Shown piece after piece: positions 9,397 to 53,896 of a stretch of DNA of 64,000 bases. The stretch is from the IMG/VR virus record IMGVR_UViG_3300045988_059494, positions 7,219 through 71,218 of that record. One strand, 5' to 3'. This DNA is from a virus. The position numbers and the translations under genes were made by a program. The first letter of the stretch is position 1. Every line of letters begins with the position of its first letter. The notes under the pieces are model-generated. The model searched no databases. It worked only from the letters and a program-made list of their open reading frames with translations, and had not been told where the DNA came from.

Positions 9397-10558
9397 TCAA
9401 TCTTTCAACACCAAAGTTAATTTCTGCGCCGCACGAGTACAAGCTGTGTAAAGCCACCGAGCATGATCTGCTTGTCTTAATACTTCCTCGACTACTAATA
9501 CCTTATCATACTCGCTACCTTGGGATTTATGAGTCGTGATACAATAGCCATAGTCAAATTGCTCCGGTCGCAACTGCTTAGGAAACAGTCGAAAGTTTTC
9601 TCGATTTACTGTTGTTTCTTTGGTGGTAATAAGTTTCCAATCCATCAAGAGGTCATGAAATGTCTGATCTCTCTTATCAGCATTATCAATCGTCTCAGGG
9701 GTAAAATCAATTAAACACATAGGATTAAGCCACTTATTTGGGACGGTAGCAATCTTATCAATAGTACCAATAGTGCCATTGACGAGAGCGTCTCCAGTCT
9801 CAGTAATCTTATCCCAGTTGTTTTTAAGACAAATAACTTTATCTCCAACAATAGGATTAGGAATGTCTTCACCATAGCGCATATTGCGGTAATAATTATT
9901 TAATGTATGACGAGTAATATTTTTCCCGCAAAGAATCTGATCTGCCCATGTAAACATACCGTCACACATCTCTCTATGACGCACAATATTGATTTCAGTG
10001 CCTTTATAAGGCTTGATAAGTTTACCTTCTCGAATATCTGCGGACAGACGAATAATCTCGCTTTCTGCAGCCTGGCGCATAATTTCATCGAGGAAGATGT
10101 GCGGACGTTCAAGAATGCCATTTTCTTCGCCAATAGGCGGTAACTGACCGGGATCGCCGCAAGCAATTACATAAATGCCATGCGACAGCAGCAAATTCCA
10201 CATAGGCTTAGGTAGCATAGATACCTCGTCAACTACGATAATATCATAATCAGAAATATTATCTTTAGGGATATGAATAAAGCTGCCATCTGCGCGCGGA
10301 ACAGATTTATACAAGAGTCTATGTGCAGTCATAGCAGTGGGACAACCCTTATTTCTTAGTACCTGTGCAGCTTTGCCGGTATAAGCGATATATCCAACTC
10401 TTTCGGGATCAATATCGAGAGCGGAGATAATAAACTTGATAAGAGTAGATTTACCTGTTCCTGCTTTCAGGCGTAGCCAGCGATCACGGTATAATTTTCG
10501 TTTGCGTGATATCTGGCTACAGCAATTTTCAAACCCTCTTCTTGTTTTTTAGTTAATT
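9397..10558 (-). CDS. RecD/Dda-like superfamily 1 helicase; needs -1 frameshift or ~8 nt hop at GCC TGA just before Walker A
   Basis: ATG at 10556-10558 gives MELTKKQEEGLKIAVARYHANENYTVIAGYA then TGA. The Walker A (AGTGKSTLIKF) and the rest of the helicase (track ORF 9397..10332) are in the -1 frame, with no start codon of their own. Confidence 0.55.
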
Positions 10559-11088
10559 CCATCGGGTTTTACTTCCTCCTTTTCTTTTAAATTTAATTCA
10601 TCTATTGTCCACATATTATCATGCAATTCTTTATGACAATTAGAACATAATAATATACATTTTTTACTTTCTTCAACTGCTTCTTGCAACTTAAAGTGGT
10701 CATTACTTATAGTAAAATCCTTTTGTGATGGGTCTAAATGATGAAATTCTAATGCTTTTAGGCATTTACTATAGCCGCATCTTACACATTGACCTCCGCG
10801 TTGCTATTTTATTTTAGACAGAAAGGCCCCTCTTGTTAGCTAAATTCCTTCTGACATACAGTCATAACAACAACTTCTCTAATTAGCCGCAGCACTTTTA
10901 GGGGTGAAAGTTTTTCCACATATAGGGCATTTTTTTTCTTTCAGACCCGAGGCTCCTGTAATTTTTCTCTCTTGATTACGTTGCTTTCTAGCTTGATACA
11001 TACAAGCATCACTACAATATTTTTTTGTGGATTTTATAGCTTCAAACTCTTTTCCACAAACTGTGCATATATTTGTCATAAAAATCAT
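10549..11088 (-). CDS. HNH homing endonuclease with 3 in-frame TAG codons
   Basis: C-terminal CGYSKCLKALEFHHLDPSQKDF...LLCSNCHKELH (HNH); track ORF 10879..11088 ends at TAG and the frame continues; paralog of 53357..53896 with a TAG at the aligned position. Confidence 0.65.
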
Positions 11089-11123
11089 TCCTTCTATATA
11101 TAGTAACTTATCAGATTCTATAA

Positions 11124-11261
11124 TATATAGAAATATATGTAGATAAATTTACTTGATTTGTCCAAGGGTTTTATCAAACTGCGTACCACTAATTACAGTA
11201 TATGCTTCTCCGTTATGGTATCTATCAACGGCAATCTTGAGTCCTTCCTCTTGTTTACGTG
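11124..11261 (-). pseudogene. diverged duplicate of the helicase N-terminus (46 codons), truncated exactly before the Walker A position
   Basis: MELTRKQEEGLKIAVDRYHNGEAYTVISG... ~75% identical in protein to the 10558 copy but divergent in DNA; flanks the HNH gene. Confidence 0.4.
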
Positions 11262-11464
11262 TTAGTTCCATTTTCCTTCTCCTTAATTGCTGCATCTACT
11301 TTAGCTTTTAAATTATATAAATGCTCCAATCCCACATCATAAAGTAATCTGGTATCCATCGGCAATGTAATCAAATCGCCATTTAGTTCATGTGAGAGTT
11401 GCTTATGTAGTTGTGCCATTTCTGAAATATTCATGCTAGTTAAATCTACATATAAAATATTCAT
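11255..11464 (-). CDS. hypothetical protein (69 aa)
   Basis: ORF track only; overlaps the helicase-fragment copy in another frame. Confidence 0.3.
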   Translation of the reverse strand: MNILYVDLTSMNISEMAQLHKQLSHELNGDLITLPMDTRLLYDVGLEHLYNLKAKVDAAIKEKENGTNT

Positions 11465-11558
11465 ACCGCTTTTCCTTTCAAAAAATAGTAAACCCTATTT
11501 TGGTTTCTGCGGACGACCGTCTAGGTGCCGGGCCAGTCCGCAGTTTCCATCAATCTAT

Positions 11559-13142
11559 TTAAAAGAAATACTCTTGACGATTTATGATTTCATAGTTCTG
11601 AATAATTAGCTGTGGTGTCACGCTATTGAAATACTTGTTTACCTCCGCCTTGCCAACGAGATTAATTGTAACACAACCATTCTCGCTAAACAAACTTTCT
11701 AGTTCTTCTTCGCTAGACTTAAACTTGATACAGGTTACTCCATTAGATAACTGTATCTTTAAAGTGGGATTTCGATCTCTAGACATTAAGGTAATCATAT
11801 CTTTAGTGATAGATAAATGTTCTACCGCGATAAGCGGCTCATCTACATTCTGTCCCCAAAGATTCTTCATATTACCCAGCTCTAAGATTTCTTTAGGTCT
11901 AATATCATTGGCTGAATGAATAAAGTCTACCTTGTAGCTAGGTGAGAACTCAATATCTTTAAGAGTTGTATCTGCGTACTCAACAAAAGCATCAAAATTT
12001 TCATCTAAGATACCAAAGCCAAACGCATTAGGATGTCCTTCCGCGAGATAGATTAAACCGCTGTCTCGGCAGAAACCTCTAAAATCATTGAGTTTAGATT
12101 TCTCATATCCTCGTGCAGAGCCACTCCAAGCCTTTTTACCATCTTCATCTACTTCAACAAGTAGAGCAACAGGACGTTGGTATTCTGCCATTAACTTGTT
12201 GGCAATTAGACCGGTAATACCTCTATCAAAAGATGGATGTTCTAACTTAACAAGTAAGATTTTATGATCTAAAAGATTATTTTCTTTGATAATACTTTTA
12301 ACCTGTTCAACTGCGGCATCTTGGTTCCTAGTCTGGCGGTTTTTAACATTAGTGCAAGTCCGCAAACTTTGGTCTAATCTTGTCTCTTGCTGGCCAGCGC
12401 ATCCTCGTTTAGTAGAGGGCACCAGATCAAAGGCTTTCCAATTCAACATAGATTCGAATAATAAAGTCTTTTCTTCTAACGTGCCTACTCGCGTAATCGA
12501 GTTAATTAAAGGAACAATGTAGAACGCTACGCCTATTGGAGTGGGATTGTCACCTAATTGATAATGGTTTTTTTCTGCCATACCCTTGATAAAAGGATTT
12601 TGAAGCTGACTTAAACCAGTTTGAACAAGATAATGGGTTTCAAAATCTCGCAAATCCATCATATCTCCAACAAGACCAACTGCAACCATATCTAAGAACT
12701 GATCTGCCTTTTGTTCACTGGTTGGAAGTAAAGAATCAATAAACTGGCATAACTTATACACAACACCAACACCAGATAATGACTTAGTTGGATAATCACA
12801 TAACTGATTATTTACAATACACGCATATTCAGAAATCTTTTCTGCTTGGTGGTGATCCAGTACAAGAACTTCAACTCCTTTATTATGCAACATCTTATGA
12901 ATATCATAATCATTTGAACTCGAGTCTGGAGCAATTACCAGTGTTGTTTCTGGTGGAATAAGAGCTGGATTAATTCCGTGCATTTTGCCATTATGGAAAC
13001 TATAAGAGATATGCTCAATAGCAGATGGAATAATTGCATGAATGTAATTCAATAGTAAGGCTGCTGAAGTATAGCCATCGCAATCACTATCTACTTGCAC
13101 ATGAATATGGAAACCATCTTTATGTAACTGGTTAAACAGCAT
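11559..13142 (-). CDS. RecJ-like DHH-family single-strand DNA exonuclease
   Basis: DHH motifs HVQVDSDCDGYTSAA, DHH-like HHQ, GGGH-like region; 527 aa. Confidence 0.65.
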   Translation of the reverse strand: MLFNQLHKDGFHIHVQVDSDCDGYTSAALLLNYIHAIIPSAIEHISYSFHNGKMHGINPALIPPETTLVIAPDSSSNDYDIHKMLHNKGVEVLVLDHHQAEKISEYACIVNNQLCDYPTKSLSGVGVVYKLCQFIDSLLPTSEQKADQFLDMVAVGLVGDMMDLRDFETHYLVQTGLSQLQNPFIKGMAEKNHYQLGDNPTPIGVAFYIVPLINSITRVGTLEEKTLLFESMLNWKAFDLVPSTKRGCAGQQETRLDQSLRTCTNVKNRQTRNQDAAVEQVKSIIKENNLLDHKILLVKLEHPSFDRGITGLIANKLMAEYQRPVALLVEVDEDGKKAWSGSARGYEKSKLNDFRGFCRDSGLIYLAEGHPNAFGFGILDENFDAFVEYADTTLKDIEFSPSYKVDFIHSANDIRPKEILELGNMKNLWGQNVDEPLIAVEHLSITKDMITLMSRDRNPTLKIQLSNGVTCIKFKSSEEELESLFSENGCVTINLVGKAEVNKYFNSVTPQLIIQNYEIINRQEYFF

Positions 13143-13318
13143 CTTAGCGGCTTGTTCTATATTATCTAATAGCAGTGGAGATAAGTTATCTTCCTCTGTT
13201 ACATTAAGATAATGAGCGATGTCTTCAAACTTAATACCTCGATTAGTAAGAACCTATTCAATCGCTGAATAGTTTTCTTGAATAGGTTTGATTAACTGAT
13301 AATCCATGATTAACCTCC

Positions 13319-19244: not shown

Positions 19245-19883
19245 TCATGCTTCACAAAGAATTAACTCTTGTGCGTACGGAAGAGTTTCAATCCACTTGC
19301 AGAACTCTCTCCATTCGGGGAGACGATGATCGTGACGCTGAACATAAATATTCTTTAGGCAACGATAATTCGTGGTCATGCGCGCAGTAAGCTCAAATCC
19401 CGCGGGATTCGTATAAAGAATTTCAAGATATAATCGTTTCATCTGTTCGGTCAATTCGACAACAAGAGCAACCCTATTGTCCTTTACAGCCCGCGCTCTT
19501 GCTTGATCAAGCGCGTTATAACGAGTGATCTTCTCTTCCATAATATCAATAACACGAGGATCAACATATTCATTATACTGCTCTCGCACATCAAACTTGG
19601 TAATGCGGTGCATCGTACTTTGAGAACTTACAAACTCCAAGAAGCGGTATCTCTCAGCCTCTACCCACATTTTATTAGAGCAGGTTAAATCAAAAGCTAC
19701 TCTAATACCAGTCATAAACTGATTATGTGCGCCATTGCCACTCGATGCTGCTTTTGATAGTCTAGTGCCACGCTTTATATCCTACTCTGTTGCTTCACGC
19801 ATTTCCGCGGTCGTGCGCATTGGATAGCCTGCCGCAACCAAACTCTCTTCAATGTCATAAATCTTTACATTATTTACTTGCAT
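19245..19883 (-). CDS. ThyX-like (flavin-dependent thymidylate synthase family) protein with altered catalytic motif; in-frame TAG at codon 34
   Basis: Aligns with ThyX (WVEAERYRFLEFVSSQSTMHRI vs WFRHRIASYNELSGRY). ATG at 19881-19883; track ORF 19245..19715 is the part after the TAG. Confidence 0.4.
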
Positions 19884-20188
19884 TATTATTCTCCCACTGT
19901 ATTAGAATAGCCTACGACGTTAAAATTGCTAGCTAACCAACAATCTAAATCATCTACAACGGCGACGCATCTCTTGCCTCTAAAGTTATCTATATAGTAT
20001 GAATAGCTAATAAATCCCAAGTTTGATGGAAGCGGCCCCACTTCTGTGATAAATCGTTTTACCTGAGAAGAAGGAGCATTACCAACAAATAAAATTTGCT
20101 TATCGGGATTTTCTTTAGCAAGCTAATTAGCATATCGCATTAAGGTAGCTGTTTTACCAGCTCCTCTATTTGTAATTACCTTAAACAT
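19865..20188 (-). CDS. P-loop NTPase, hypothetical; in-frame TAG at codon 22
   Basis: GGAGG SD, MFKVITNRGAGKTATLMRYAN-TAG-LAKENPDKQILFVGNAP...; no ORF in track because of the TAG. Confidence 0.45.
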
Positions 20189-21099
20189 TAGGAGCCTCCT
20201 CTGGTACTATTTAGACCATAATCTTTTGTTTTATAGAACTCAATCCAATAAGTCTCTCGCTCATTCAACTAAGCTCGAGGCACTTCTTCCAAAACTTCGA
20301 ACATGAAATTATGCTGTCCAGATTTTTGCATTGCCTAATATAACTTATTAGTCGCTGGACCGTAAGCTAAAGAAGTTTTAATGTGTTGCCTAAAACGCTC
20401 TTTAATATCAACAGATTGGCCAATATAGGCCTAACCAGTGATTAGATTAGTAATCTTATAGATACCACAGACTTTAGAGGCTTTTGGAAATAACTTACTC
20501 ATAAGTGCATCATAAGATGGCTTATAATAAGTTTCCCAAATTAGCTTATCAATAGCTTCTTTCTTGAAGAAACGAGTCTATAATTCTCGCAACAGACTTA
20601 TATCATTAACACTTAAATCATCAATAGTTAGTCGATAATAGTCCTAATTTGCGGCACTCTCTTCTTGACGCTATTGAGCTTGGATATACGCTAACTATTT
20701 AGCTTCTAACTGCTCCAGTTTGTCTTGTTCTACTAGAACCTACTAGGCAATTTCCGCGAGTTCTTTTTCCTTTTGCTGTTCAAACTCTTGATAGACTTTT
20801 TCTAATTTTTCAGTTTCTCGCGCATATATTGTCTTTGCGCTCTCTTTGGCTTGCTGCTCTGCGTTTTCCCGCATTTTAGTAGCTGTATCAATTAAAGAGT
20901 TGATAACTTCATTCTACTAATCTATATTAGCTTTTAGCTACATTAAATCTAGATTATGTCGTTCAATATCTGATTCAATGCGCTCATTTTCTGCCTATCG
21001 CTCTCTATTTATTGATACTACTTTAAGCCGATCATTGCGGAGGTGGACAGTATATCCTGCCAAAGCAGCAATAATTAAACCTAATAGTAAATATATCAT
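20188..21099 (-). CDS. TM helix + coiled-coil + C-terminal GIY-YIG domain protein; 13 in-frame TAG codons
   Basis: MIYLLLGLIIAALAGYTVHL (TM), Q/E-rich coiled coil, then GIYKITNLITG-TAG-AYIGQSVDIKERFRQH...ETYWIEFYKTKDYGLNSTRGG (GIY-YIG). Single frame from ATG 21097-21099 to TAA if TAG is sense. Confidence 0.6.
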
Positions 21100-27864: not shown

Positions 27865-27910
27865 ATTATTAGATCGTTGAATCTTCATCAGAAGGGTATG
27901 TCATCTACTA

Positions 27911-28120
27911 CTATGCATTATACATAGCTAGATCGTAGGTAATCCCACCCTTTTTATGATCTGACTTACTCATATTAAGATAGAATGAGCAAACTATCCC
28001 ATGAGCTGACCAAGGTAAACCAACCAACGCACTAATCCAAGGTAAAGACCCCAGATATCCTAAGTGCACGCAATAAAACGCTAACAAAATACCAGAAAGA
28101 GTTACGACCCATAATAGCAA
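27911..28120 (-). CDS. putative holin (two TM segments); ends with TAG TAG TAG
   Basis: Hydrophobic 69 aa ORF immediately downstream of the amidase gene; TTG start per track, start uncertain. If TAG is sense it gains a 15-residue charged tail ending at TAA (~27871). Confidence 0.4.
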   Translation of the reverse strand: MLLWVVTLSGILLAFYCVHLGYLGSLPWISALVGLPWSAHGIVCSFYLNMSKSDHKKGGITYDLAMYNA

Positions 28121-28193
28121 GCGAATATCGCAAATTAACTATTTAGAAAACTCTTTCTTAGATTTTTGTCTATGCTTTTTTTGCTAAGTTGAT

Positions 28194-34674: not shown

Positions 34675-34680
34675 TTTTAT

Positions 34681-36005: not shown

Positions 36006-36152
36006 TCTTTGCTTGCTCCTTCCATTTCTTTCGCTTTTTGTTTAAGTTCCTCAATACTTGTTCCAAGAAGAGCGAAGAAAGTTTCATCGTCCATTTTGGC
36101 GAGATCTCGTTCCATGTTTTCGAGAGTCTTAGATAGCTTACGTAGCTTCATT
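36003..36152 (-). CDS. small hypothetical protein (49 aa), translationally coupled (ATGA overlap) to the Thg1-like gene
   Basis: MKLRKLSKTLENMERDLAKMDDETFF... Confidence 0.3.
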
Positions 36153-36419
36153 AGTCTTTATCCTTTCCGAAAATAGAGGTATTATTATTAAAGAAGCTAC
36201 CGATCCAACCAAGAGTACCTGCACACAGCGGGATCATATCCTTAGTGAACCATGCTACATTGAACATAGTATTCAAACCAGTAGCGAGAATATTACCAAT
36301 CGTGATTGAAGCAATCCAACCACCAAGATAAGCGAACCAAAAATATACGAATGGCTCAATTACAATTAGGAAAACGATACTTACCAACGCACCAATCACA
36401 GACAGAAAATCATCAAACA
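36151..36419 (-). CDS. small membrane protein
   Basis: Hydrophobic; probable start MFDDFLSVIG inside track ORF 36151..36504. Confidence 0.3.
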
Positions 36420-36571
36420 TCCGATTACACTCCTTACGATAAAATAAATAAAATAGACAATAGAGATCATAAGCGCCCACGAACCTATAATAAGTCCTCC
36501 CCAAATGGCAAGTCGAGAGCCGATCCCAACGACTAAGAATATGCTAATAAATAGCATAGATAAAAGTAGTA

Positions 36572-37480
36572 TTAGAAATAACATTTCTGTTTTCGATGCC
36601 CCTTTTCGTAGCAGTAATCTTTGCAATGTTTCGCAGCGGTGTCAGGTCTATGTTCCTTAGGCTGATCGCAATCTAAAGAACCATGCTTATGACATCTACA
36701 AGCAGCATGGCCGCGGAACCATTCACGATAGAAATGTTTACAGTCGTAACATTCTTTGTTCTTCAGTTTTCTCTTTCTCGATCTTTTCGTAGCTACATCA
36801 ATAGTCTGTCTATGTACAGATTGGACTTTTGCCGTTAATCCTCTCTTCATTAACCTATTCAGATTAACTGGCGTGTAGTTAATTACATCAGAGCAAACAT
36901 TCAGATGTCGGTCATCATCTTTGTGACAACGATCATGGATATGACCATGAATGTTGAATACCCAAGGCATCATAGGAAGCGGCTCATGCGATAGAATAAG
37001 TTTCTCACCAATCATGAGAGGCCCTTCATAGATCTCGTCAAACAGATTGTTGTCCGCGCTCACTTCCCAATAAACGAAAGGAGCGTGAAAATCATATATC
37101 TCACTGATAGAATACTTACAACCGGGATATAGCTGCTTCATTTTATCAAGAGCTTCAGATTTACTCCAAAGCTCTGTATCATAAATTCTCTTGACAATCT
37201 TGCGCTCGTAGTTACTGCGGCCGGCATCATGGTTTCCCATAATAAGTACCTTATAACCACGAAGTTTAGCGCACACAGCTGGGTCGCCGCAATCTCCAAG
37301 AATAATGAGCGTATCCTTCTTACCAACTTTACTATTGATAAGTTTAACTTGTTCTTCCGCGGAGGGACGTTCTGGCATACCTGCTACAATCTCTTCATCA
37401 TTGAAGTGAGGATCAGAGTAGATATATACCGTGCCTTGAGCGTGCCAGTGGTCAAAGATCTTATAGAGTCCAGGGATCAT
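36572..37480 (-). CDS. metallophosphoesterase with C-terminal Cys/His-rich zinc-binding tail
   Basis: YIYSDPHFNDEE...LIILGDCGD...GNHD motifs; C-terminal CYDCKHF...CRCHKHGSLDC. Confidence 0.55.
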   Translation of the reverse strand: MIPGLYKIFDHWHAQGTVYIYSDPHFNDEEIVAGMPERPSAEEQVKLINSKVGKKDTLIILGDCGDPAVCAKLRGYKVLIMGNHDAGRSNYERKIVKRIYDTELWSKSEALDKMKQLYPGCKYSISEIYDFHAPFVYWEVSADNNLFDEIYEGPLMIGEKLILSHEPLPMMPWVFNIHGHIHDRCHKDDDRHLNVCSDVINYTPVNLNRLMKRGLTAKVQSVHRQTIDVATKRSRKRKLKNKECYDCKHFYREWFRGHAACRCHKHGSLDCDQPKEHRPDTAAKHCKDYCYEKGHRKQKCYF

Positions 37481-37565
37481 TACAAAACCTCCTTAGTTAA
37501 ATCAATCGCATTATCTGCAATAAATGGATAATCTAAATCAAATAAGATATAACAGCCATTACTTT

Positions 37566-37612
37566 TCATTCTTCTTTATTTTATGTATATATAATAACAT
37601 ATATTTTATAAA
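37566..37612 (-). promoter_or_regulatory. conserved extended -10 promoter block
   Basis: Coding strand TTTATAAAATATATGTTATTATATATACATAAAATAAAG. Confidence 0.45.
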
Positions 37613-37616
37613 AAAT

Positions 37617-37640
37617 AAAGGGAGCTTAAAGCTCCCTTAA
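37617..37640. terminator. hairpin terminator
   Basis: GGGAGCtttaaGCTCCC. Confidence 0.5.
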
Positions 37641-37649
37641 AATCTATAT

Positions 37650-38384
37650 TCACCACGGAAAAGTAGGCATCGGCTCTACCTTATGGAGATTACGCTGGTG
37701 ACGTCCCATAATGTTGGCGAAGGTGTTGTAGTCAGGTACATTGCCAAATACAAGAAAATCATCTAGCTCTTTGTAGGTAAAACCAAGATTATCTTCGTCA
37801 GTTTTTCCACTAAGACCATCTTCCGGTACTTTGTTAATAAACTCTTCCGGCAAGCCCAGTTCTCTACCAATAGCAAGAACTTCCTTTACTGTAAGGTTCG
37901 ACAGAAGAGAGAAATCACCTGCGGAGTCGCCAAACTTAGTAGAATAACCAATAAAATCCTCGCTCTTGTTGCAGGTATTTGCTACTCTACCATGTTCAAG
38001 CGCAGCAATAGCATAAAGCACTGTCATGCGGACGCGGGCAGGAGAGTTAGAAGTAACTTGGGGATTGTTTTTAACCGTACTATCAAAATCATACCCCTCA
38101 TCAATAGCATGATATAAGGATTCACAGACATCGCCAATATTGATTTCGTAACTCCGAATACCGAGATAATCAATTACTTTATTGGCAATGTCGATGTCAT
38201 GCTGATTGCCCTGCGGCATCTTTACACCAATTACCCTATCTTTTCCGAGCGCTTTAACGAGCAGGGCCGCAGTTACGGTGCTATCTTTACCGCCAGAAAT
38301 ACCTACGATTGCCTTGCAATCTGCGCCATTCTGCACAAAATAGTGCTTAGTCCAATCTAAAATCTTAGGAATTACTTTCTCCAT
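37650..38384 (-). CDS. nadE: NH3-dependent NAD+ synthetase
   Basis: PP-loop SGGKDST motif, 244 aa. Confidence 0.8.
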   Translation of the reverse strand: MEKVIPKILDWTKHYFVQNGADCKAIVGISGGKDSTVTAALLVKALGKDRVIGVKMPQGNQHDIDIANKVIDYLGIRSYEINIGDVCESLYHAIDEGYDFDSTVKNNPQVTSNSPARVRMTVLYAIAALEHGRVANTCNKSEDFIGYSTKFGDSAGDFSLLSNLTVKEVLAIGRELGLPEEFINKVPEDGLSGKTDEDNLGFTYKELDDFLVFGNVPDYNTFANIMGRHQRNLHKVEPMPTFPW

Positions 38385-38833
38385 GTTTTGAGTTCTCCTT
38401 CTGTTTCAAGTCTATTATATACTTCTCTCAATATTGCGAACGCATTACCAAGTCCAGCGCGATCATCGAGCAAAATATTGTAATAAATTTTTCGTGCTGG
38501 GATATGCTTTTCTGGTGGAAGAATATCTTCATTGATATAGTCAAATGGAATATTATTGTCGCGTAAATATTTTTCAATATACGGATAACGCTCTTCCGCA
38601 GAGGCGGTAAATACAACGAGCTTGGCATATGGTTCCCATGCCCGCAGCAAGTTAATTACGCCATCATAGCGCCACTGTTCATCTTTGAAATTATGGACAG
38701 TATAATCAAAGTCAAATGCTATGATTATACTGCCATACTTCTTATATTCGCTATATAGTCTTTCAGCGGCATTATGAGTGTAGATATATGGATCACATAA
38801 AACCTTCTCGGTAGAGTCTTGCTCTAATATCAT
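38372..38833 (-). CDS. HAD-superfamily phosphatase
   Basis: Motif I FDFDYTV; 153 aa. Confidence 0.5.
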   Translation of the reverse strand: MILEQDSTEKVLCDPYIYTHNAAERLYSEYKKYGSIIIAFDFDYTVHNFKDEQWRYDGVINLLRAWEPYAKLVVFTASAEERYPYIEKYLRDNNIPFDYINEDILPPEKHIPARKIYYNILLDDRAGLGNAFAILREVYNRLETEGELKTWRK

Positions 38834-40517
38834 GTAATGTATCCTCCTTAATCATAGTGCCATTACGGAAAATGGGCTGAAGCAGATTGTCTTCACCAAG
38901 GTGCTCATTCCAAGTCAGCTCATCTTCATAATTCTGACCATCAAGAGAAACTCGGCAGCAACCCTTTTGAGATCTCTTCCAGCTAAGCGCTTTAGGCTGC
39001 TTATAGATCATAATAGGCTTGCCATTTGCATCTTCTGCGTAAGTAGCTTTTACCGCGATGCCGAAAGTATCTCGCGTATAAGGGTTAAACTTACCATCTT
39101 CCTCAAGGCACATGAACGAGAACGAACCCACGCCAAGTGAAGTATTATTGATAGCAAATCCATTATTCACAAGGCGATGGTAAATGCGGGCGCAACGCTG
39201 AGGGGTAATACTGTCGCCGTAGATTGCTTTGATATGGGGATCAAGAACCTTATAACCCTTGCTATTGATGGTGCCACCGAAGATGTCCCATAGGCGCCAA
39301 ACAGTGCCCTTATCCTCAGAGGTCAGTTCATAGTTTTCAATCAGTTTGACGTTATAACCCTCAATGTACCAATATTTGCAATCAGTACAAGCGCCGCGCT
39401 CATTAGTCCATTCGACTGTAATGTCAGCAAGAGCATACTCTCCATTGTAAGAGAAAATCTGCTGAGTGTCCTTCTCTAAGTCTCGCTCAAAGAACTCAGC
39501 AATAAATTCATTGGGATCATCTTTCAGCTGTTCCCACTCTTGCTCGTCGAGATAGATAATTTCCTTACCCGCGATAATCTCTACAGGATCGCCGCTATCG
39601 CCACGAATAGAAAGGCAACCATCATGCGCCATAATTTCGTCTTTTAACTGCGGAAGGATCTTATCTACGAGTCTCCAATAGTCATAACTATCAGATACCA
39701 TAGAGAAATTGTGGTGAGGATAAATCTCTGTTAGAAGTCTGCGGATGTGGGTAATCTCATCACCATCAACCGCGTAATTAGAACACATAACACTGTGCTC
39801 TGTAGAGATTGCGCCATAAGCAACAGGCTCAGTAGCGCAATCGCAATTATAGTTCTTCTCAAGCCACATGATTGCGGGTACAGTAGCAGTATTCAAGAAA
39901 GAAAGACACCAACCCGCAGAACTCTTAATCGCGGATTCCGCAGACTGCTGACCGCGCATAGAAAAATCGCCAAGCAGTCGAGCAACAGAAACATCATCAT
40001 CGCAACTAATATCGTGATACTTCTGCACAATCTGCCGATACCGATAGCCGACTTCCGCGGATACCTGCGTGTGCCACATGGTTGCAGACAGCAGAGTTTC
40101 AATGGTATTTACAAGCCAAACAAAGTTTGGATGGGTATTAGTAATCTCAATCTGCGGAACTCCAATCGCAGTTCTAGTACCTTCCGGGACAGCGGAGATT
40201 TCAAGCGGCAAATAACCGAGCCGATGCAGTTCTCTAATCTTATCAGACTGGAAAGCACCTTTACCGAGCGTGGCATTGAGCACACGTTCATACTCGGTTA
40301 CTACCTCGTCTTCCGAACGATTAAAGAAGCTATCGTTGAAGCCTGCAATAAGATATTCTTTAATAAAGGCTTGCAGACCAAAGAGAGTAACTTTATCAAC
40401 TCCCTGCAGCCTACTCATACGAGGAGTATAGTAACTAACCATCTTAGTTAATCCCGCAGGATACTGTTCATGGTGAGTGCTCTTATAGAAATCAATCATT
40501 AAAAGAGGATTAAACAT
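38793..40517 (-). CDS. nicotinamide/nicotinate phosphoribosyltransferase (NAMPT/PncB family)
   Basis: MFNPLLMIDFYKSTHHEQYP N-terminus typical of the NAPRTase family; 574 aa. Confidence 0.75.
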   Translation of the reverse strand: MFNPLLMIDFYKSTHHEQYPAGLTKMVSYYTPRMSRLQGVDKVTLFGLQAFIKEYLIAGFNDSFFNRSEDEVVTEYERVLNATLGKGAFQSDKIRELHRLGYLPLEISAVPEGTRTAIGVPQIEITNTHPNFVWLVNTIETLLSATMWHTQVSAEVGYRYRQIVQKYHDISCDDDVSVARLLGDFSMRGQQSAESAIKSSAGWCLSFLNTATVPAIMWLEKNYNCDCATEPVAYGAISTEHSVMCSNYAVDGDEITHIRRLLTEIYPHHNFSMVSDSYDYWRLVDKILPQLKDEIMAHDGCLSIRGDSGDPVEIIAGKEIIYLDEQEWEQLKDDPNEFIAEFFERDLEKDTQQIFSYNGEYALADITVEWTNERGACTDCKYWYIEGYNVKLIENYELTSEDKGTVWRLWDIFGGTINSKGYKVLDPHIKAIYGDSITPQRCARIYHRLVNNGFAINNTSLGVGSFSFMCLEEDGKFNPYTRDTFGIAVKATYAEDANGKPIMIYKQPKALSWKRSQKGCCRVSLDGQNYEDELTWNEHLGEDNLLQPIFRNGTMIKEDTLHDIRARLYREGFM

Positions 40518-40535
40518 TTATGCAAAACTCCTTTA

Positions 40536-41345
40536 TTAAAGAATAATAGGATCGACAGTGATGAGATCAGTTGGGAAAGTACCAGCAAGAGAGTTGGTTG
40601 TAAAGATATGCTCAACCAGTCCACTCTTGATTAGGTCTCCTTCCATGATAGTGGTTTCGCAATGAGTAATAAAGAGATAAATGTTCTTCGCACCCTCAGC
40701 CTTAAGTGCCTTAGCGGAATGGAAGAAGGTGCCGCCGCGCGAACAAATATCATCAACAATGAGAATATTTTTACCTCTTACAGCTTCCTTGTTGATAATA
40801 TCAATGCCTTTAATGTTACCAGTCGCCCAATCGCGCTTCTTCATGCCGAAACTATAAGGACGATTAAACTGTTCAGAATATCTCTTCATTGCTCCCTCAT
40901 CAGGATAATACATCACAAGATCCGGATCGTTAATTGTGTTGATCGCACGCTCAACAAAAGGAGTGTTATCACGATTCTCGATACGATCAATAAGTGCCAG
41001 ACTTACATTGCTGTGTGCATCATAGACAACTACCTTAGAGAAATTGAGCGAGTTGATAATGCCTGCGAAGCTCTTGAGAGTAAAAACATCATTAGGACTC
41101 TTTACTCTGTCCATGCGGGCGTGCGGACAGTAGGGCATATAAAGCGAGATACTATCATTGCAATAGTGGTTCTTTAAGCAAATAAGCGAGAATAATTCTG
41201 CATCGTTTTCATAGTCCCATCGTATTGCGGAAACAAAAGTATGACTCAGCTTCGGGGGTTCTAAATGCAAAGTCCCATCTGGAAAATGACTCTGAATAAC
41301 TGGCAGCCAAGTTCCAGGGTAATGGAAAGTTTTAACAGAAAGCAT
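40536..41345 (-). CDS. prs: ribose-phosphate pyrophosphokinase (PRPP synthetase)
   Basis: PRPP-binding ILIVDDICSRGGTF motif; likely start MLSVKTF. Confidence 0.8.
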   Translation of the reverse strand: MLSVKTFHYPGTWLPVIQSHFPDGTLHLEPPKLSHTFVSAIRWDYENDAELFSLICLKNHYCNDSISLYMPYCPHARMDRVKSPNDVFTLKSFAGIINSLNFSKVVVYDAHSNVSLALIDRIENRDNTPFVERAINTINDPDLVMYYPDEGAMKRYSEQFNRPYSFGMKKRDWATGNIKGIDIINKEAVRGKNILIVDDICSRGGTFFHSAKALKAEGAKNIYLFITHCETTIMEGDLIKSGLVEHIFTTNSLAGTFPTDLITVDPIIL

Positions 41346-41361
41346 AAATATTCTCCTCTCC

Positions 41362-41874
41362 TTACACAATTTTAATCTGGCAAGACTTCATTACTGCCAG
41401 AGCTGCTTCATGCGCTTCCTTGGTAGTACCGGCACACCAATCCTTATGGCACACAATTTCTCTATTGGGATAGAGTGCTCGAAGGATCAGCGCATTCGAT
41501 ACAACACAAATGTCAGTGCAAACACCGCAAATCTCAATCTGCGCAGTATCCTTTACCGGCATATTCTTCCACATAAAGGTACCAAAAGTATCCTTATCAA
41601 CCACATAAAGGTTCTTAATTGCAGAAGCCGCGTCTGTCAGCTCTGGAACAATATCCCAACCCTCGGTATTCTTCACACAATGCTGAACCGGCAGGTACTT
41701 GCCTTCAAGAGTATTGAGGTAATCATCATCGTGGGTGTCACGAGTAAAGACAACCATATCGTAGTCCTTAATATGATCGGCAATGTTCTTTGTCGCAGTC
41801 TGAGCAGCTTCAGAACCAAGTGCGCCGGTCACAAAATCGTTCTGCATATCAATTACAATAAGAATTTTCTTCAT
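41362..41874 (-). CDS. isochorismatase-family nicotinamidase (PncA-like)
   Basis: MKKILIVIDMQNDF start with catalytic Asp; Cys in ICGVCTDICV. Confidence 0.65.
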   Translation of the reverse strand: MKKILIVIDMQNDFVTGALGSEAAQTATKNIADHIKDYDMVVFTRDTHDDDYLNTLEGKYLPVQHCVKNTEGWDIVPELTDAASAIKNLYVVDKDTFGTFMWKNMPVKDTAQIEICGVCTDICVVSNALILRALYPNREIVCHKDWCAGTTKEAHEAALAVMKSCQIKIV

Positions 41875-41898
41875 AGGGAAAACTCCTTTCCTTATTCT

Positions 41899-41935
41899 TT
41901 ATGTATATATTATATCATAATTATTTATAAAAATA
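41899..41935 (-). promoter_or_regulatory. conserved extended -10 promoter (coding strand TTATGATATAATATATACATAAAGAA)
   Basis: TGaTATAAT 37 nt upstream of ATG 41874, with SD AAGGAAAGGAG between. Confidence 0.55.
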
Positions 41936-41937
41936 AA

Positions 41938-41961
41938 AGAGAGCCTTTGAACAAGGCTCTC
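41938..41961. terminator. hairpin terminator
   Basis: AGAGCCTTtgaacAAGGCTCT. Confidence 0.5.
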
Positions 41962-41967
41962 ATATCT

Positions 41968-42357
41968 TTAATCCAGACCAATAGGTTTAATATCAAGCAC
42001 CCTATCCGGATACATACTCCAGTTTTTCCAATTCCTCTTGCTTGCCTGCATTTCTGCGAGCCGCTTATTAGCTTCTACCATATCAGCCATATAGAGTAGA
42101 TTGTCACTATTGATGTTATTTTTTTCAGTTAGTGCAGCAATAGTCTGTCTCTGGATTTCAAACGATGCTTCAAAGTTTTTATATTCCATGCTATAAGAAA
42201 TAGCAACAAGCAGAATAACTAAGGTCGTCGCGCCACAAAAAACTGCACCGAGCGCCGCAATCCAATCGTATTCATGGCCAAATACCTTGATAGAAACGAT
42301 AAGTAGCATTACAAACAGCATCGCTGCGATAAGTGCAACAATCATCCAATTAACCAT
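41968..42357 (-). CDS. membrane protein, hypothetical
   Basis: N-terminal TM helices; 129 aa. Confidence 0.3.
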   Translation of the reverse strand: MVNWMIVALIAAMLFVMLLIVSIKVFGHEYDWIAALGAVFCGATTLVILLVAISYSMEYKNFEASFEIQRQTIAALTEKNNINSDNLLYMADMVEANKRLAEMQASKRNWKNWSMYPDRVLDIKPIGLD

Positions 42358-42518
42358 TTATATTCTCCTTTATGCAAATAATGTAATATACGCAAATGCA
42401 ACCGCTAAATTGCCAAACAGAAACCCTGCTTGATATGCGGTTGCCGGATCTGCTTGGTCAGCACCAATGGCCCGACCAAGAATAATTACAGCAATCCATA
42501 GGATGAAAGAAATAATCT

Positions 42519-43784
42519 TCATACTTCCTGTGCTTCCTCCATATCCGGTGCATTTTCAGTCTCCTTAATGATGCCTTCAAGTACCTTAAACTCGTAGGTC
42601 TTAGACTTGAAAGCAGTGAAGGAACGACGATTTACAATACGAATTACAACGCCTTCCTTGACATGAGTTTTGCCAATTGGGTCTGCAAGATCCTCGAAGT
42701 AATCATTGATGCGCTTCAACAGATCATCTACGGTAGTAAACTCAAAGTTGTCAATCACTGGTACTCGATTAAAGCCATGCTCATCACACCATGCAGTAAT
42801 CTCGTCAGGAGTCCACTCACGCTCGCCGTTCTCAGAAGTGATGCGGTAAATCCACATATGAGACTCACCCGGCTCGCATCCATAAGAGAAAATAGAACGC
42901 TTGCCGAACTGTTTCTGGAAAGCCTTGTCTTTCAGCTTCGAGTTATCGCCAATCGGCATGATAGTATCTCCATCGCCGAGACCATAGTAACCTACAACCT
43001 CGTAAAAGACTTCCATACCCGGCTCAAGGAACGGCTTCAGCGCCTCGTGATGCGGCAGTCGGAACTTATTATCACCGTAGTAGCCACCATCATCCTCAGA
43101 GACTACACAACGACGAGTACCAAGTACATAAGCCTGCTTAGTACGCTTCTTCATATGAAACAGGCGACGGAAGAAACCATTCGGCAGCTCCGCAACAGTA
43201 TTCATAGAACGCTGAGAAGTACCATGCATTTTAAGAGTCATGTTTAGCTGATCGCCCGGACGGAACGCATCAAGATTGTAAGCAAGCTGTGCAGTATCAA
43301 TGTGCATTGCAAAATCCGGATATACAACGCCCTCTGCCTTACGACCCTTATAAGAGGTCTTAGCCACAGTCTGCGGATACTTGCGCTTCGGGATATACTT
43401 GCGGCAGAACTCTTTATCATTGACGGTATTTACCTTATCACCATCCTCCCAGTGCTGATCGCCAAATACTTCATAGACATGGTCAAGAGAAATGACAATA
43501 CCAGAACTCTGGTTGCCACGGAGCTTAATTGCCCGGATGTGAGAGCTATTTTCCAAATATCCGCCTTGAGGAGTGCCATCGAGATTTTTTCGATATAAGG
43601 TGAAAGCATCGCCGAACCATCTCTCAATCTCTCCGTCTGTAGGAAGATAAAGCACTAACTCATTTTCTTTCATGTTGGACCCAACAATAACTCCTTCATT
43701 AAAACAATCTGCAAGCCACAGATTATCAGAATTGGGATCTTTATGCAGATTATTCAATTTTGTCACTAAAGCATAGTAAGCCAT
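42519..43784 (-). CDS. ATP-dependent RNA ligase (Rnl2-like nucleotidyltransferase with N-terminal extension)
   Basis: Motif I KMHGTS (KxHGxN), motif IV EGVVIR, motif V FKSK; 421 aa. Confidence 0.7.
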   Translation of the reverse strand: MAYYALVTKLNNLHKDPNSDNLWLADCFNEGVIVGSNMKENELVLYLPTDGEIERWFGDAFTLYRKNLDGTPQGGYLENSSHIRAIKLRGNQSSGIVISLDHVYEVFGDQHWEDGDKVNTVNDKEFCRKYIPKRKYPQTVAKTSYKGRKAEGVVYPDFAMHIDTAQLAYNLDAFRPGDQLNMTLKMHGTSQRSMNTVAELPNGFFRRLFHMKKRTKQAYVLGTRRCVVSEDDGGYYGDNKFRLPHHEALKPFLEPGMEVFYEVVGYYGLGDGDTIMPIGDNSKLKDKAFQKQFGKRSIFSYGCEPGESHMWIYRITSENGEREWTPDEITAWCDEHGFNRVPVIDNFEFTTVDDLLKRINDYFEDLADPIGKTHVKEGVVIRIVNRRSFTAFKSKTYEFKVLEGIIKETENAPDMEEAQEV

Positions 43785-44499
43785 TTAACTCATGTTCCTC
43801 CTCTTTACTAATTCGTTTATATATAAAACCTTTATATGTGTTTCTCTGCCCATTTAATACTCGATAAATTGCTTTATCAGTTTTTGCATCTGGACAAAAT
43901 TCTCTATATGCTGAAATTGCAGTAGGAAAAATAGCTAATAATTGACCATCTTTATCATACTTCGCAATCGGCTATCTTCTTGCTTCCAACGCCTTTTTCT
44001 TTGCATCTTCTCGATGACCATCTTGATAGGCTTGTTTTAATTTTTCACTTCGCTCTTTTTTTAAGGAAGGATTGTCGATAAACTTCTATTTTAGAGAGTT
44101 GCTAATCTTTTCGTTTCTTTTGTTACTATAAGTTCGATTTTTAGCAGCTAGAGTCATATGCTGTCGATACTCTGGATCTTCCCATAGCGACTTAACAGAC
44201 TCGCCTATCTGTTTTCTAACTTCTTCCGTTTGATAGTTTCCGCCTGGAGAGACATTGTAACCAAAACTTGTATCTAAAAGATTTAATTCTTTGATTGTGT
44301 CTATTTCTTTTTGTCGAATTAAATCTTCATTATCGGATTCTAATATCACTTCTTTAGTTACATTTTCCCAGCCATATTTTTCAATAGCGTAGCCGACACG
44401 CTATCCTTTATATCTCCCCGATGCTCGCTGTTCAATGGAATTTCTAGTAATTCCGCAGTATTTCTTCCCATTTGGGAAAGTGTATAAATAACAAATCAT
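43750..44499 (-). CDS. GIY-YIG homing endonuclease (I-TevI-like architecture) with 3 in-frame TAG codons
   Basis: AGGAGG SD; MICYLYTFPNGKKYCGITRNSIEQRASGRYKG-TAG-RVGYAIEKYGWENV (GIY-YIG), NUMOD-like repeats, C-terminal DNA-binding tail; track ORF 44086..44349 is the middle fragment. Confidence 0.65.
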
Positions 44500-51706: not shown

Positions 51707-51738
51707 TCTTATAAACTTCCTTTCCTATTTCCTTATGT

Positions 51739-51775
51739 ATATATTATATAATAATTATTTATTATTTTCAAATAG
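51739..51775 (-). promoter_or_regulatory. conserved promoter block
   Basis: Coding strand AATAATTATTATATAATATATACATAAGGAA. Confidence 0.45.
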
Positions 51776-51780
51776 AAAAG

Positions 51781-51816
51781 AAAAAACGAGGAAATATTTC
51801 TATTTCCTCGTTTATA
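51781..51816. terminator. hairpin terminator
   Basis: ACGAGGAAATAtttcTATTTCCTCGT. Confidence 0.55.
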
Positions 51817-53391
51817 TTAGTGAATCTGCGCGTAGCGCTCACTGTCCAGCTTCTCAAGAACAAGAGCAAGTCCGTCCTTGCCGCTCAGAATCTGCTGGAT
51901 CATAACAGGGCTGAAACCACTTACGTAGCTAAAGCCGTCCCCAATCGCGGGAATGTTGTTATTACGCGCGTTCAGGTTCCAAAAGACACAACTCGGCATC
52001 TTGTAGCCACACCGCGCCCACTTAGCCTTCATGTCTTCAAACAGAGTGTTGATCCGCTGCATTTCCATGCCACGACCCCAGCCGCCAGTAACATGGTTAC
52101 TCGTTACACAGCGATCAAATTCCATATCAGAAAAGATATATACACGCTCAGGCATATCTTCTGCACGAACAGACTGCTTCATAGCGGTCGCAAGCAGCAT
52201 ATCGAAAACAGCTTCGATATTAGTATTCGCACCCCAATCCGCACTCACGCAGCGGCACAGCTTATCCGTAATGTCTGCACCCTCGAACTTTACCAGCTTC
52301 GGAGAGCCAGAAAAAGTAATGAAGTGGTTAGCAAACGGACCGTGCGCCTTATCTGCAATGTATGCGCCCATAGAAACAGCCGCTTCCATAGGAACACCAG
52401 ACATAGAGCCAGAAACATCGACAACTGCGATGCCGTTCTCTACATTGTCGCCATAGAAATTGGGCAGATTATCCCAATACTTCTGGAGCATTAGACGCTC
52501 AGAGTCTTCCAGACTCTTACGGCGAGAGCTGAAGGCACGATGAGCAATGTCATGCGGATACAGCGCACCAGCGTTAACGGTAGTTTCAGTATCCTTAGCA
52601 AAAGCCTCATACTTTGCCTTAATCATATCGCGACGCGCAAATGCGTTACGATAGATAATACCTGCACGAGAAGGAATTTTATCAAACTCAATCTCGTCCC
52701 AACGGTTTTCAGACATAAGGCGTTCGACAATGCGGATGCGCTCGCGCAGTACAGACAAGGTCTTGCGGTACTCCTTCGGAGTCATATGGAAATGATTACG
52801 AGAGATCGTCGCCAGACGACGCGACTCCTTAGAAGAAGTGTTCTCAGACTTCAGCCACTTAGCAAGAAGCGACGGAGTTTTACAAGAAACATCGAGCGCA
52901 AGCTGATGTCTCATAATCTTGAAAGCCTCATCTTCCAGAGGAGTGTCGACAAAGACGTAGAAATCATCCCAACGACCATACTCGGGCACGAACTTCAGGT
53001 TACGGCGCATTGCTGCGGTTTCATTGAAGGCAAGCCAACGAGAAACCACGCGGAAGAAACGACGTTCTCCCTGTCCACCACGCACATCGCGCAGATAAAA
53101 CAGACACTTCAGTGCATGAGCCTCGTCCTCATCAAAAGCAGCCTTGAACAGAGTGATGCAATCTGCATCGGTGCGCTGACGATAAGCGCCTCCAAGCGCA
53201 AAAAGATCCATAAGTCCATTTAGCGTAGACTTATGAGTAATAGCGCCATTCTCAGTCAGAGTGAAGTTAGTGTCCTGCTTCATAGCGTTCATAAAAGTAT
53301 TCATTGTATCAATCTCCTTTTGATTTTTAGTCGCTCCCTTGGACAAGGGAGATAGTTTATTGATAATGTTCTTCTGCGTGACAATTTGCAC
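51817..53391 (-). CDS. CobT-like protein with C-terminal vWA domain (MIDAS DVSGSMSG)
   Basis: vWA motif AVVDVSGSMSG; 524 aa; partner of the MoxR-like ATPase. Confidence 0.5.
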   Translation of the reverse strand: MQIVTQKNIINKLSPLSKGATKNQKEIDTMNTFMNAMKQDTNFTLTENGAITHKSTLNGLMDLFALGGAYRQRTDADCITLFKAAFDEDEAHALKCLFYLRDVRGGQGERRFFRVVSRWLAFNETAAMRRNLKFVPEYGRWDDFYVFVDTPLEDEAFKIMRHQLALDVSCKTPSLLAKWLKSENTSSKESRRLATISRNHFHMTPKEYRKTLSVLRERIRIVERLMSENRWDEIEFDKIPSRAGIIYRNAFARRDMIKAKYEAFAKDTETTVNAGALYPHDIAHRAFSSRRKSLEDSERLMLQKYWDNLPNFYGDNVENGIAVVDVSGSMSGVPMEAAVSMGAYIADKAHGPFANHFITFSGSPKLVKFEGADITDKLCRCVSADWGANTNIEAVFDMLLATAMKQSVRAEDMPERVYIFSDMEFDRCVTSNHVTGGWGRGMEMQRINTLFEDMKAKWARCGYKMPSCVFWNLNARNNNIPAIGDGFSYVSGFSPVMIQQILSGKDGLALVLEKLDSERYAQIH

Positions 53392-53896
53392 ATAGTAATA
53401 AACATTTATCTACTTCTTCATAAAGTTTATCTATATTGTCGAGTGTTACTCCAATTTCGGCTATACCGAAATCTTTTTGGGTTGGGTCAAGATGGTGAAA
53501 TTGTAAAGCTCCTTCGCATTTATCATAACCACAACGCTCACATTTTCCGCCTTTATAAAGAATTAGCTAGTGTTTGATGGCTTTTTGACGAGCCTTACCG
53601 CTATCTTGGCTTGGAGAGCAATCATAACAATAAATGCGATTATTGACTTTTGTTTTATATTTCTTCCCACAAATCGGGCATATCTTCTCAATCTCTTCTT
53701 GAGCAATATTGGGATTAGTACATTTACCACACGACTAAGTGGGCCTGCTACTTGTTAAACTTGAACCTCTAATTTCCTTTTCAGTTCCACAGTCACATCT
53801 GCATTTCCAATAGGTCTTACCATTGCGGTTTGGCGCTCTTTCAATAACGACTAACTTACCAAAACGCATACCAGTTAAATCTCTTAAATTTGGCAT
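53357..53896 (-). CDS. HNH homing endonuclease with 2 in-frame TAG codons (paralog of 10549..11088)
   Basis: SD GGGAGG; CERCGYDKCEGALQFHHLDPTQKDF...LLCANCHAEEH; the TAG in KAIKH-TAG-LILYKGGKCERCGY aligns with the TAG in SKIK-TAG-QRGGQCVRCGY of the paralog. Confidence 0.65.

Follow-up and report, generated by a model that had tools for sequence, protein, structure and literature searches.

Borges et al. (bioRxiv 10.1101/2021.08.26.457843; Nat Microbiol 2022) described phages in which recoding affects the lysis and structural genes but spares those for replication, which stay in the standard code. In the TGA-recoded Agate phages, a group I intron endonuclease located in an early gene was preferentially recoded, and its in-frame stops were argued to hold endonuclease production back until late. 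Delayed expression is also known from phage T4, in which I-TevI, SegB and MobE are produced at middle or late times (Edgell, Gibb and Belfort 2010, PMC2988022), and the mobA/gene 60 region of T4 is a mobile cassette with a 50-nucleotide (nt) translational bypass (bioRxiv 10.1101/2022.08.31.505936). The phage phAss-1, of the 'Caudoviricetes code 15 clade', was described as reading TAG as glutamine (Int J Mol Sci 2023, PMC10607447). Here, six endonuclease-like genes, four encoding a GIY-YIG domain (GIY1 to GIY4) and two of the HNH type (HNH1 and HNH2), were investigated in 64,000 nt of the virus record IMGVR_UViG_3300045988_059494 (positions 7,219 to 71,218; this whole stretch is hereafter called the window). 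All six contained in-frame TAG codons, at a frequency far above that of the other genes of the window.

As in the Agate phages, an endonuclease gene rich in the reassigned stop lay within an early gene, and replication genes kept the standard code. The present case differs in its codon (TGA = Trp in the Agate phages, TAG = Gln here), in involving six genes from two nuclease families (one apparently intron-borne, four free-standing and one domesticated), and in the documented strain-level presence or absence and TAG/CAG flips. The positions of the genes also recall T4 (PMC2988022), where GIY-YIG and HNH endonucleases are found within or next to genes of nucleotide metabolism and replication and inside the tRNA cluster, SegB being matched by GIY4. 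T4 relies on late promoters and on RNA hairpins masking the ribosome-binding site, whereas the block proposed here would be a codon awaiting its suppressor tRNA. Similarity to phAss-1 and its clade (PMC10607447) extends to the human-gut habitat, genome size (about 133-138 kb), a DnaE-type polymerase, NrdD, TAG read as Gln, large tRNA sets with CUA suppressors (one with a long variable arm) and a GIY2 homolog. phAss-1 is nevertheless a distant relative, although the nearest named one, with no megablast match and only 44% identity for the GIY2 homolog. The passages of that paper considered here place TAG mainly in virion genes and make no mention of endonuclease genes.

The window represents the arm for replication and nucleotide metabolism of a human-gut phage of about 145 kb, which uses genetic code 15 (TAG = glutamine), possesses its own CUA suppressor tRNA and is distant kin of phAss-1. 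The ENA contig ERZ27261405:k119_87904 (144,639 bp) overlapped the window in two fetched segments, with 100% identity over window positions 1-11438, and a megablast of a 12-kb query against a phage collection returned zero matches. The GC skew was negative over the entire window and almost every gene was on the minus strand. Once TAG was treated as sense, coverage by long open reading frames (ORFs) rose from 74% to 86%; the majority of the large core genes lacked any TAG.

The six coordinate pairs listed in an earlier note on this DNA delimit real ORFs, yet on the minus strand, where their translations are clean, those of the plus strand being riddled with stops (all features located by window coordinates below are likewise on the minus strand). 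GIY1 (5798..6643; 281 residues; TAG codons 71, 129 and 139) encodes a GIY-YIG endonuclease with a helix-turn-helix tail and lies inside an insertion in the DnaE gene. HNH1 (10549..11088; 179 residues; TAG codons 70, 83 and 95) is a free-standing HNH endonuclease gene with a zinc ribbon, and GIY2 (20188..21099; 303 residues; 13 TAG codons) encodes an N-terminal membrane helix, a glutamine-rich coiled coil and a C-terminal GIY-YIG domain. GIY3 (43750..44499; 249 residues; 3 TAG codons) is a free-standing GIY-YIG gene overlapping the start of an RNA ligase gene, and HNH2 (53357..53896; 179 residues; TAG codons 54 and 110) a free-standing HNH gene between tRNA-Cys and a DUF2828 gene. The last, GIY4 (61600..62223; 207 residues), stands free between tRNA-Gln and tRNA-Pro and encodes an I-TevI-like GIY-YIG endonuclease with a NUMOD1 domain and a single TAG at codon 6 (YIY-TAG-ITN); in I-TevI, Gln occupies the matching position (GIYQIKN).

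Every one of these ORFs started with ATG and ended with TAA. They contained 25 internal stops in total (3 in GIY1, 3 in HNH1, 13 in GIY2, 3 in GIY3, 2 in HNH2 and 1 in GIY4), all TAG and none TAA or TGA, for which the chance expectation is p ~ 2e-19 given that TAG makes up about 18% of stop triplets in the three minus-strand frames. The presence of TAG in all six genes, as stated in the earlier note, was thereby borne out. The family assignments rested on Pfam PF01541 (GIY-YIG) scores of 44, 32 and 47 bits for GIY1, GIY2 and GIY4, with GIY3 just below the cut-off (21.1 versus 22.6 bits), and on matches of GIY2 and GIY3 to PHROGs homing-endonuclease families at 1e-20. Both HNH genes matched phrog_2255 (HNH; 1e-25 and 1e-27), the matches running over the TAGs, and the catalytic motif FHHLDP...C.NCH was invariant or nearly so in an alignment of 42 sequences; for Pfam HNH_2, HNH1 reached 19.1 bits (cut-off 21) and HNH2 had no match. 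Within the sensitivity of the PHROGs, Pfam and custom-profile searches, the six represent all endonuclease genes of the window: no further endonuclease-like gene was detected with PHROGs among 40 TAG-free ORFs or with our own GIY-YIG and HNH profiles in a six-frame translation. A Pfam search of 69 TAG-free ORFs showed no additional endonuclease among the 25 most frequent families listed; this run alone could not exclude further endonuclease genes, a gap filled by the PHROGs batches and the custom profiles.

Comparison with orthologs indicated that TAG is a third glutamine codon in the six nuclease genes and that these genes are intact and under purifying selection. Between HNH2 and its ortholog in locus L001 (96.7% nucleotide identity), 15 of 18 codon differences were synonymous, with TAG110 opposite CAG and TAG54 in common. 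GIY3 and its L001 ortholog (93.5% nucleotide identity) differed at 48 codons, 33 of them synonymously, sharing all three TAGs and showing CAG/TAG at two sites. For HNH1 and its ortholog in L087, 10 of 14 codon differences were synonymous, TAG83 and TAG95 stood opposite CAG, and TAG70 was common. Thus, all five TAG differences between close orthologs were TAG/CAG exchanges. At greater distance, an HNH2 ortholog of 63% identity, located beside the same DUF2828 gene, had a TAG in the exact column of HNH2 TAG110, where 30 of the 42 family sequences have Gln. In GIY2, Gln predominated in 9 of the 13 TAG columns, with all 27 homologs carrying Gln at two of these, and orthologs at the equal genomic position (58% and 70% identity) exchanged TAG freely with CAA and CAG, including at the Q of YIGQS and at Gln columns with little or no variation. 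Insertion of Gln at TAG is shown in PMC9523058 for crAss-like phages only.

The earlier note had come to the same conclusion, namely that the TAGs are translated, from a TAG said to be conserved at an aligned position of the two HNH paralogs. That argument did not hold, as the two TAGs sit three columns apart. BLASTP aligned HNH1 and HNH2 with 46% identity over 111 residues, ungapped through the TAG stretch, and paired HNH1 TAG95 with Leu113 of HNH2 and HNH2 TAG110 with Lys92 of HNH1; in the MAFFT alignment of 42 sequences, the two codons occupied columns 143 and 140, respectively. None of the 42 sequences had a gap between the TAG-bearing helix and CxxCGY, and the pairing proposed earlier, which needs a 3-residue gap, is therefore unsupported. 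Within the HNH1 subfamily, the TAG95 column contained E, Q or TAG. The conclusion itself stands on the orthologs: the glutamine codons of homologs, which the note had proposed to inspect, do swap with TAG as both CAG and CAA, and full-length single-ORF homologs align unbroken through the TAGs, contrary to what separate remnants would give.

The six endonuclease genes were then set against the 77 other minus-strand ORFs of the window. TAG was present in all six, compared to at most 15 of the 77 (Fisher p = 1.4e-4), and represented 1.8% of codons compared to 0.14%, a 13-fold enrichment (p = 6e-16). As a share of TAG, CAA and CAG together, it reached 34% in the endonuclease genes and 4% in the others. 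Several of the 15 other ORFs with TAG are spurious, their TAGs being intronic, in N-terminal extensions or in doubtful small ORFs. Base composition and codon choice followed the same division, with a GC content of 33.5% compared to 40.5 ± 3.8% and CAA:CAG counts of 39:10 compared to 224:349.

The replication genes of the window encode a DnaE-type polymerase, a Dda-like helicase, a RecJ-like nuclease, a primase, DnaB, a Sak4-like protein, a ligase and topoisomerase II; NrdD and NrdG represent nucleotide metabolism, and PhoH, an RNA-repair set, a nicotinamide adenine dinucleotide (NAD) salvage set and 12 tRNA genes were also present. Almost no TAG was found in core early genes (DnaE, primase, DnaB, topoisomerase II, NrdD, ligase and others), the labels early and late being assigned from gene function. 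A SPOR-domain enzyme of the lysis type contained 3 TAGs, and several accessory genes elsewhere on the contig were TAG-rich as well. The division therefore runs between core early genes and all others, with the endonuclease genes in the second class: in being AT-rich, in preferring CAA and in using TAG freely, they resemble the other accessory and late genes of this phage.

A single account covers these observations and is considered likely as a whole: the nuclease genes are intact with TAG read as Gln, early genes are kept poor in TAG, endonuclease production is consequently delayed, and part of the set is mobile. Early genes would be free of TAG because they must be translated before the suppressor tRNA accumulates, and a C-to-T change at a CAG codon, which yields TAG, would be tolerated where a gene is not needed early. 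Delayed endonuclease production would be a logical consequence of such a code switch, with no full-length endonuclease made early in infection. In GIY1, ribosomes would halt at codon 71 and stay clear of the 3' part of the insertion, a code-based counterpart of the way T4 hides the I-TevI ribosome-binding site. On its own, this finding is confirmatory, as Borges et al. already reported and interpreted the preferential recoding of an intron endonuclease. The published idea, that a phage's code switch also postpones its selfish endonucleases, is widened beyond a single intron endonuclease recoded at TGA to a TAG-recoded phage in which every endonuclease-like gene of a 64-kb early region bears the reassigned codon.

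Several observations weigh against this account. The timing classes follow gene function and not expression. Three genes of the replication arm have a single TAG each within their first 35 codons (a RecJ-like gene, 11559-13307, at codon 18; a PHROG 6721 protein, 19245-19883, at codon 34; and a 100-residue protein, 19886-20188, at codon 22), so that the TAG barrier is not absolute. The variable arm of the suppressor tRNA is, at 20 nt, unusual, and the presumed charging of this tRNA with Gln follows from the alignments rather than from tRNA identity rules. Finally, TAG positions are subject to rapid turnover and an HNH1 relative (in L157) is TAG-free, which together disfavour strong selection for a TAG gate. 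The suggestion of the earlier note that recoding serves to restrain the endonucleases is thus plausible, and published for a TGA-recoded phage, but the restraint would not be universal, given that TAG-free relative.

Much the same pattern could arise by neutral drift, if AT-rich, weakly expressed and weakly constrained endonuclease genes simply gathered CAG-to-TAG changes with no regulatory role. TAG/CAG flips go both ways between strains, TAG positions are poorly conserved, other low-GC accessory genes of the contig are as TAG-rich, and the TAG-free HNH1 relative would be expected. Yet drift leaves the TAG-purged core neighbours unexplained unless early translation matters, which already implies a delay for genes with TAG, and the enrichment reported by Borges et al. 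for the intron endonuclease family was statistically significant. Drift and the delay account overlap, differing solely on whether the delay is selected; drift is a serious possibility, although we lean away from it. The strain set, with its empty sites and TAG/CAG flips, makes it possible to distinguish cleanly between a delay under selection and one that is simply tolerated.

The TAGs might also have been imported, the endonuclease genes having been acquired recently from more TAG-heavy recoded phages whose codon usage they still reflect. This reading draws on the evidence for mobility. Of the strains closely related to this phage (about 95-99% identity over the regions compared), L086 and L088 possessed an uninterrupted DnaE of 1296 residues and an uninterrupted helicase of 385 residues, and lacked both GIY1 and HNH1; L087 possessed HNH1 but not GIY1, its DnaE being intact (1296 residues). 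In L091, the 624-bp segment holding HNH2 was replaced by 140 bp. From this distribution, at least GIY1, HNH1 and HNH2 are judged to be mobile, while GIY3 and GIY4 resemble free-standing genes of the seg type.

GIY2 behaved differently. It has 852 homologs, nearly all of the 120 listed being 299-317 residues long, and its position between the ligase and thymidylate synthase genes was fixed in the window and in L095, L097, L098 and L094. Length and position stayed constant from 99% down to 58% identity, and in the four sequences available at the DNA level (window, L095 and L097/L098), TAG accounted for 42-52% of Gln codons. The domain fusion noted earlier at 20188-21099 is real in that a GIY-YIG domain is joined to a membrane helix and coiled coil; as a mobile homing gene it was not upheld, this being a conserved family of 303-305 residues with a gene order fixed in all relatives examined. 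By these sequence criteria, GIY2 is a domesticated, vertically inherited resident protein and not an evident mobile homing endonuclease.

Several of these observations fit import: the composition and codon usage of the endonuclease genes are unlike those of resident genes, three of the genes vary in presence between near-identical strains, a foreign helicase 5' copy (about 30% diverged; see below) is part of the HNH1 cassette, and most of the nearest HNH2 relatives come from contigs whose ORF coverage goes up once TAG counts as sense. Against it, GIY2 is vertically inherited yet the most TAG-rich of the six, and TAG/CAG flips are ongoing within the lineage. Import would moreover give the source of the TAGs but not the reason why they are tolerated, and is compatible with the delay account; we regard it as unlikely, without being negligible. 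The related proposal that the endonucleases have resided for long in recoded phages was sustained for families but not for this genome. At the family level, treating TAG as sense increases the ORF coverage of the closest HNH2 relatives (marginally in 3 of 11 loci), and members of the GIY2 family are rich in TAG over the whole span of 58-99% identity, whereas at the genome level GIY1, HNH1 and HNH2 are each missing from close strains, those copies having therefore recently arrived or been lost.

A further alternative is that TAG encodes another amino acid (Ser, Leu or Tyr), in view of the class II-like long variable arm of the suppressor. The tRNA array of the window (53980..63696) comprises 12 genes, none with a CUA anticodon, and runs on past the window as far as an amber suppressor tRNA(CUA). 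This gene is encoded on the minus strand of the same contig, at a distance of 2.5 kb from the right end of the window (L089 2999-3089, equivalent to window coordinates of about 66440-66530). CUA tRNAs were also present in related phages. The suppressor measures 91 nt, of which 20 form the variable arm; it has G2:C71, G73 and a mismatch of U1 with C72, and is homologous to the 88-nt suppressor tRNA of phAss-1. The variable arm, G73 and G2:C71 partially resemble tRNA-Ser, and a variable arm of this length is unexpected on a Gln-charged tRNA. Conversely, the U1-C72 mismatch and G73 are Gln-like, and the 1:72 mismatch, G2:C71 and G73 recur in the short suppressor of L009. All five exchanges between close orthologs are TAG/CAG and deeper ones mostly involve CAA or CAG, Gln predominates in conserved TAG columns, and the authors of phAss-1 assign Gln; another amino acid is hence very improbable.

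That the genes are decaying pseudogenes or separate remnants, with TAG a true stop, as the breakup of all six under the standard code might suggest, has next to no probability and is refuted by the ortholog comparisons, given the mostly synonymous differences downstream of TAGs, CAG at the same sites in orthologs and homolog alignments continuous over the TAGs, in addition to the absence of TAA and TGA from the 25 internal stops and the suppressor tRNA on the contig.

The element carrying GIY1 interrupts the DnaE gene between exon 1 (6823..9334; no TAG; PHROG 405 DNA polymerase, 4e-168) and exon 2 (4267..5645). The two TAGs at the apparent N-terminus of the ORF at 4267-5715 fall inside the insertion and are non-coding. 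The insertion (5646..6822) is 1177 nt long; T (6823) is the last base of the 5' exon and G (5646) that of the insertion, and a TGA in the exon frame directly follows the 5' junction. Joining ..ATGGGGT to ATAGTTTTTCC.. restored MGYSFSVIHA, identical to the uninterrupted DnaE of L086. The insertion thus has splice-site features that would be hallmarks of a group I intron. A search with Rfam (E up to 1) of positions 5400-7100 gave no match to a group I ribozyme core, although the 846-nt ORF inside may defeat the model, and at a permissive threshold Rfam detected no intron around either the DnaE or the HNH1 insertion. Within seven exon codons beside the DnaE insertion (5646-6830), five synonymous changes distinguished the interrupted from the uninterrupted allele (GGC to GGG, TCA to AGT, TTC to TTT, TCT to TCC and GTC to GTT), which is the pattern expected of co-conversion or target-site immunity.

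The HNH1 insertion was of another kind. Relative to the empty site of L086, the cassette measures 719 nt (10462..11180) and is made up of a junction, HNH1, a repeated helicase 5' end and an 8-nt gap. In the direction of transcription, a resident helicase 5' remnant (11181..11272; about 30 codons, truncated at the Walker A site and with a 1-nt deletion) is followed by HNH1, by a second, diverged copy of the first 31 helicase codons (10470-10562; about 30% diverged), by the gap TGAAAGCA (10462..10469) and by the rest of the Dda/RecD-like helicase (9397..10461), the same order being found in L087. The gap falls within the Walker A motif, between ..GGC TAC GCC (G-Y-A) and GGA ACA GGT AAA TCT (G-T-G-K-S), and the uninterrupted site reads TACGCTGGCACAGG. 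From GTGKS on, the helicase body has an open frame, with a difference of one codon relative to the intact L086 allele.

Two scans of IMG/VR recovered related helicases with an intact site as well as ten gap alleles of 5, 6, 7 or 8 nt, the gap loci considered being L087, L109, L114, L119, L133 and L149-L157. These alleles (TAACT, TGACT, TGACC, TAAGTT, TAAGCT, TAGGTA, TAAAGCT, TAAAACT, TGAAAGCA and TGAAGGCA) all open with a stop (TAA, TGA or TAG) directly after an Ala codon. The triplet right before GGN is GCT or GCA in four of the ten, ACT or ACC in another four and GTT or GTA in the remaining two. Over the 30 codons upstream of the gap, the protein is conserved at a DNA divergence of 27-37%, and downstream of it an ORF of 350-366 residues remains open in all loci where its end is covered and stop-free in the three truncated ones. 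Synonymous differences accounted for 58/64, 22/24, 24/27 and 28/33 of those between gap-bearing pairs, allele groups without a nearby HNH gene included. An HNH1-type gene lay directly upstream in seven gap-bearing loci (the window, L087, L119, L133, L152, L153 and L157) and was absent in six others with enough upstream sequence (L109, L114, L150, L151, L154 and L156); an HNH gene beside an intact helicase site was never seen among the loci compared.

Other ways of expressing or explaining such a gene were considered. Since the gap lengths fall into all three frame classes, no single frameshift explains them; a -1 frameshift fits just the 5- and 8-nt alleles and not those of 6 or 7 nt, and tRNA-Ala cannot re-pair on CGC. 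A group I intron around HNH1 is eliminated, since the Walker A motif is not restored by any combination of an exon ending in U and an intron ending in G. Read-through from the HNH1 stop would find an open frame in the window, but the frame is closed 11-12 codons upstream in five of six distinct gap-bearing sequences, and re-initiation after the gap lacks a start codon ahead of the Walker A motif. Null helicase alleles are unlikely, as both flanks are under purifying selection, also in allele groups without a nearby HNH gene.

The most economical reading, inferred from sequence, would be a short hop of peptidyl-tRNA-Ala over the stop: ribosomes would skip the gap and produce a normal helicase, and the gap would remove the site that the HNH enzyme would cut, protecting the carrier genome. 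As in T4 mobA/gene 60, the host gene with a short untranslatable insert has an HNH gene directly upstream, the insert starts with a stop right after the putative take-off codon, and endonuclease and insert travel together. Unlike the 50-nt insert of gene 60, the gaps are of 5-8 nt and lie in the Walker A motif of a Dda/RecD-like helicase; the codon of take-off and that of landing are cognate in four of the ten allele types (GCC...GCA, both Ala, in the window), and no conserved strong take-off hairpin was detected in 75-nt folds. A programmed translational bypass of a new and very short kind, as part of the HNH1 cassette, is put forward tentatively, at a little short of an even chance. If true, it would be the second natural programmed bypassing system linked to a homing endonuclease, an independently evolved counterpart of the T4 mobA/gene 60 cassette with at least ten natural alleles. 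It would offer a ready allelic series (5, 6, 7 and 8 nt) for the mechanism of take-off and landing, and would bear on the possible evolution of the gene 60 cassette. No report of such helicase gaps was found in the literature searched; the gap tied to HNH1 may be new and merits follow-up of its own.

Apart from the nuclease genes, a 114-residue membrane protein (27869-28213; 5 TAGs), a candidate holin-like protein, overlapped the start of a TAG-free Amidase_2 endolysin gene (28194-28937). The pairing of a TAG-rich membrane protein with a TAG-free amidase agrees with the published idea that recoding times lysis.

Two irregular tRNA-like genes were observed. The first (59553-59626; also L001 945-1018) has an 8-nt anticodon loop, GUUAAAAG, for which ARAGORN predicted a four-base anticodon UAAA, and scored just 31 bits with the Rfam tRNA model; it is kept in a related phage whose shared regions have about 70-90% DNA identity. 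An amber or ochre suppressor was ruled out, the loop GUUAAAAG containing neither CUA nor UUA after U33, and quadruplet decoding is conceivable. The second, on the same contig outside the window (L089 4747-4821), has a two-base anticodon 'tt' according to ARAGORN and a weak predicted fold.

At 33407-43784, the RNA-repair set (a polynucleotide kinase-like protein, a Thg1-like tRNA-His guanylyltransferase, phosphoesterases and RNA ligase) adjoins the NAD salvage set (NAD synthase, nicotinamide phosphoribosyltransferase, phosphoribosyl pyrophosphate (PRPP) synthetase and an isochorismatase-type enzyme). Both modules are TAG-free, and they may be counter-measures against tRNA-cleaving and NAD-depleting host defences.

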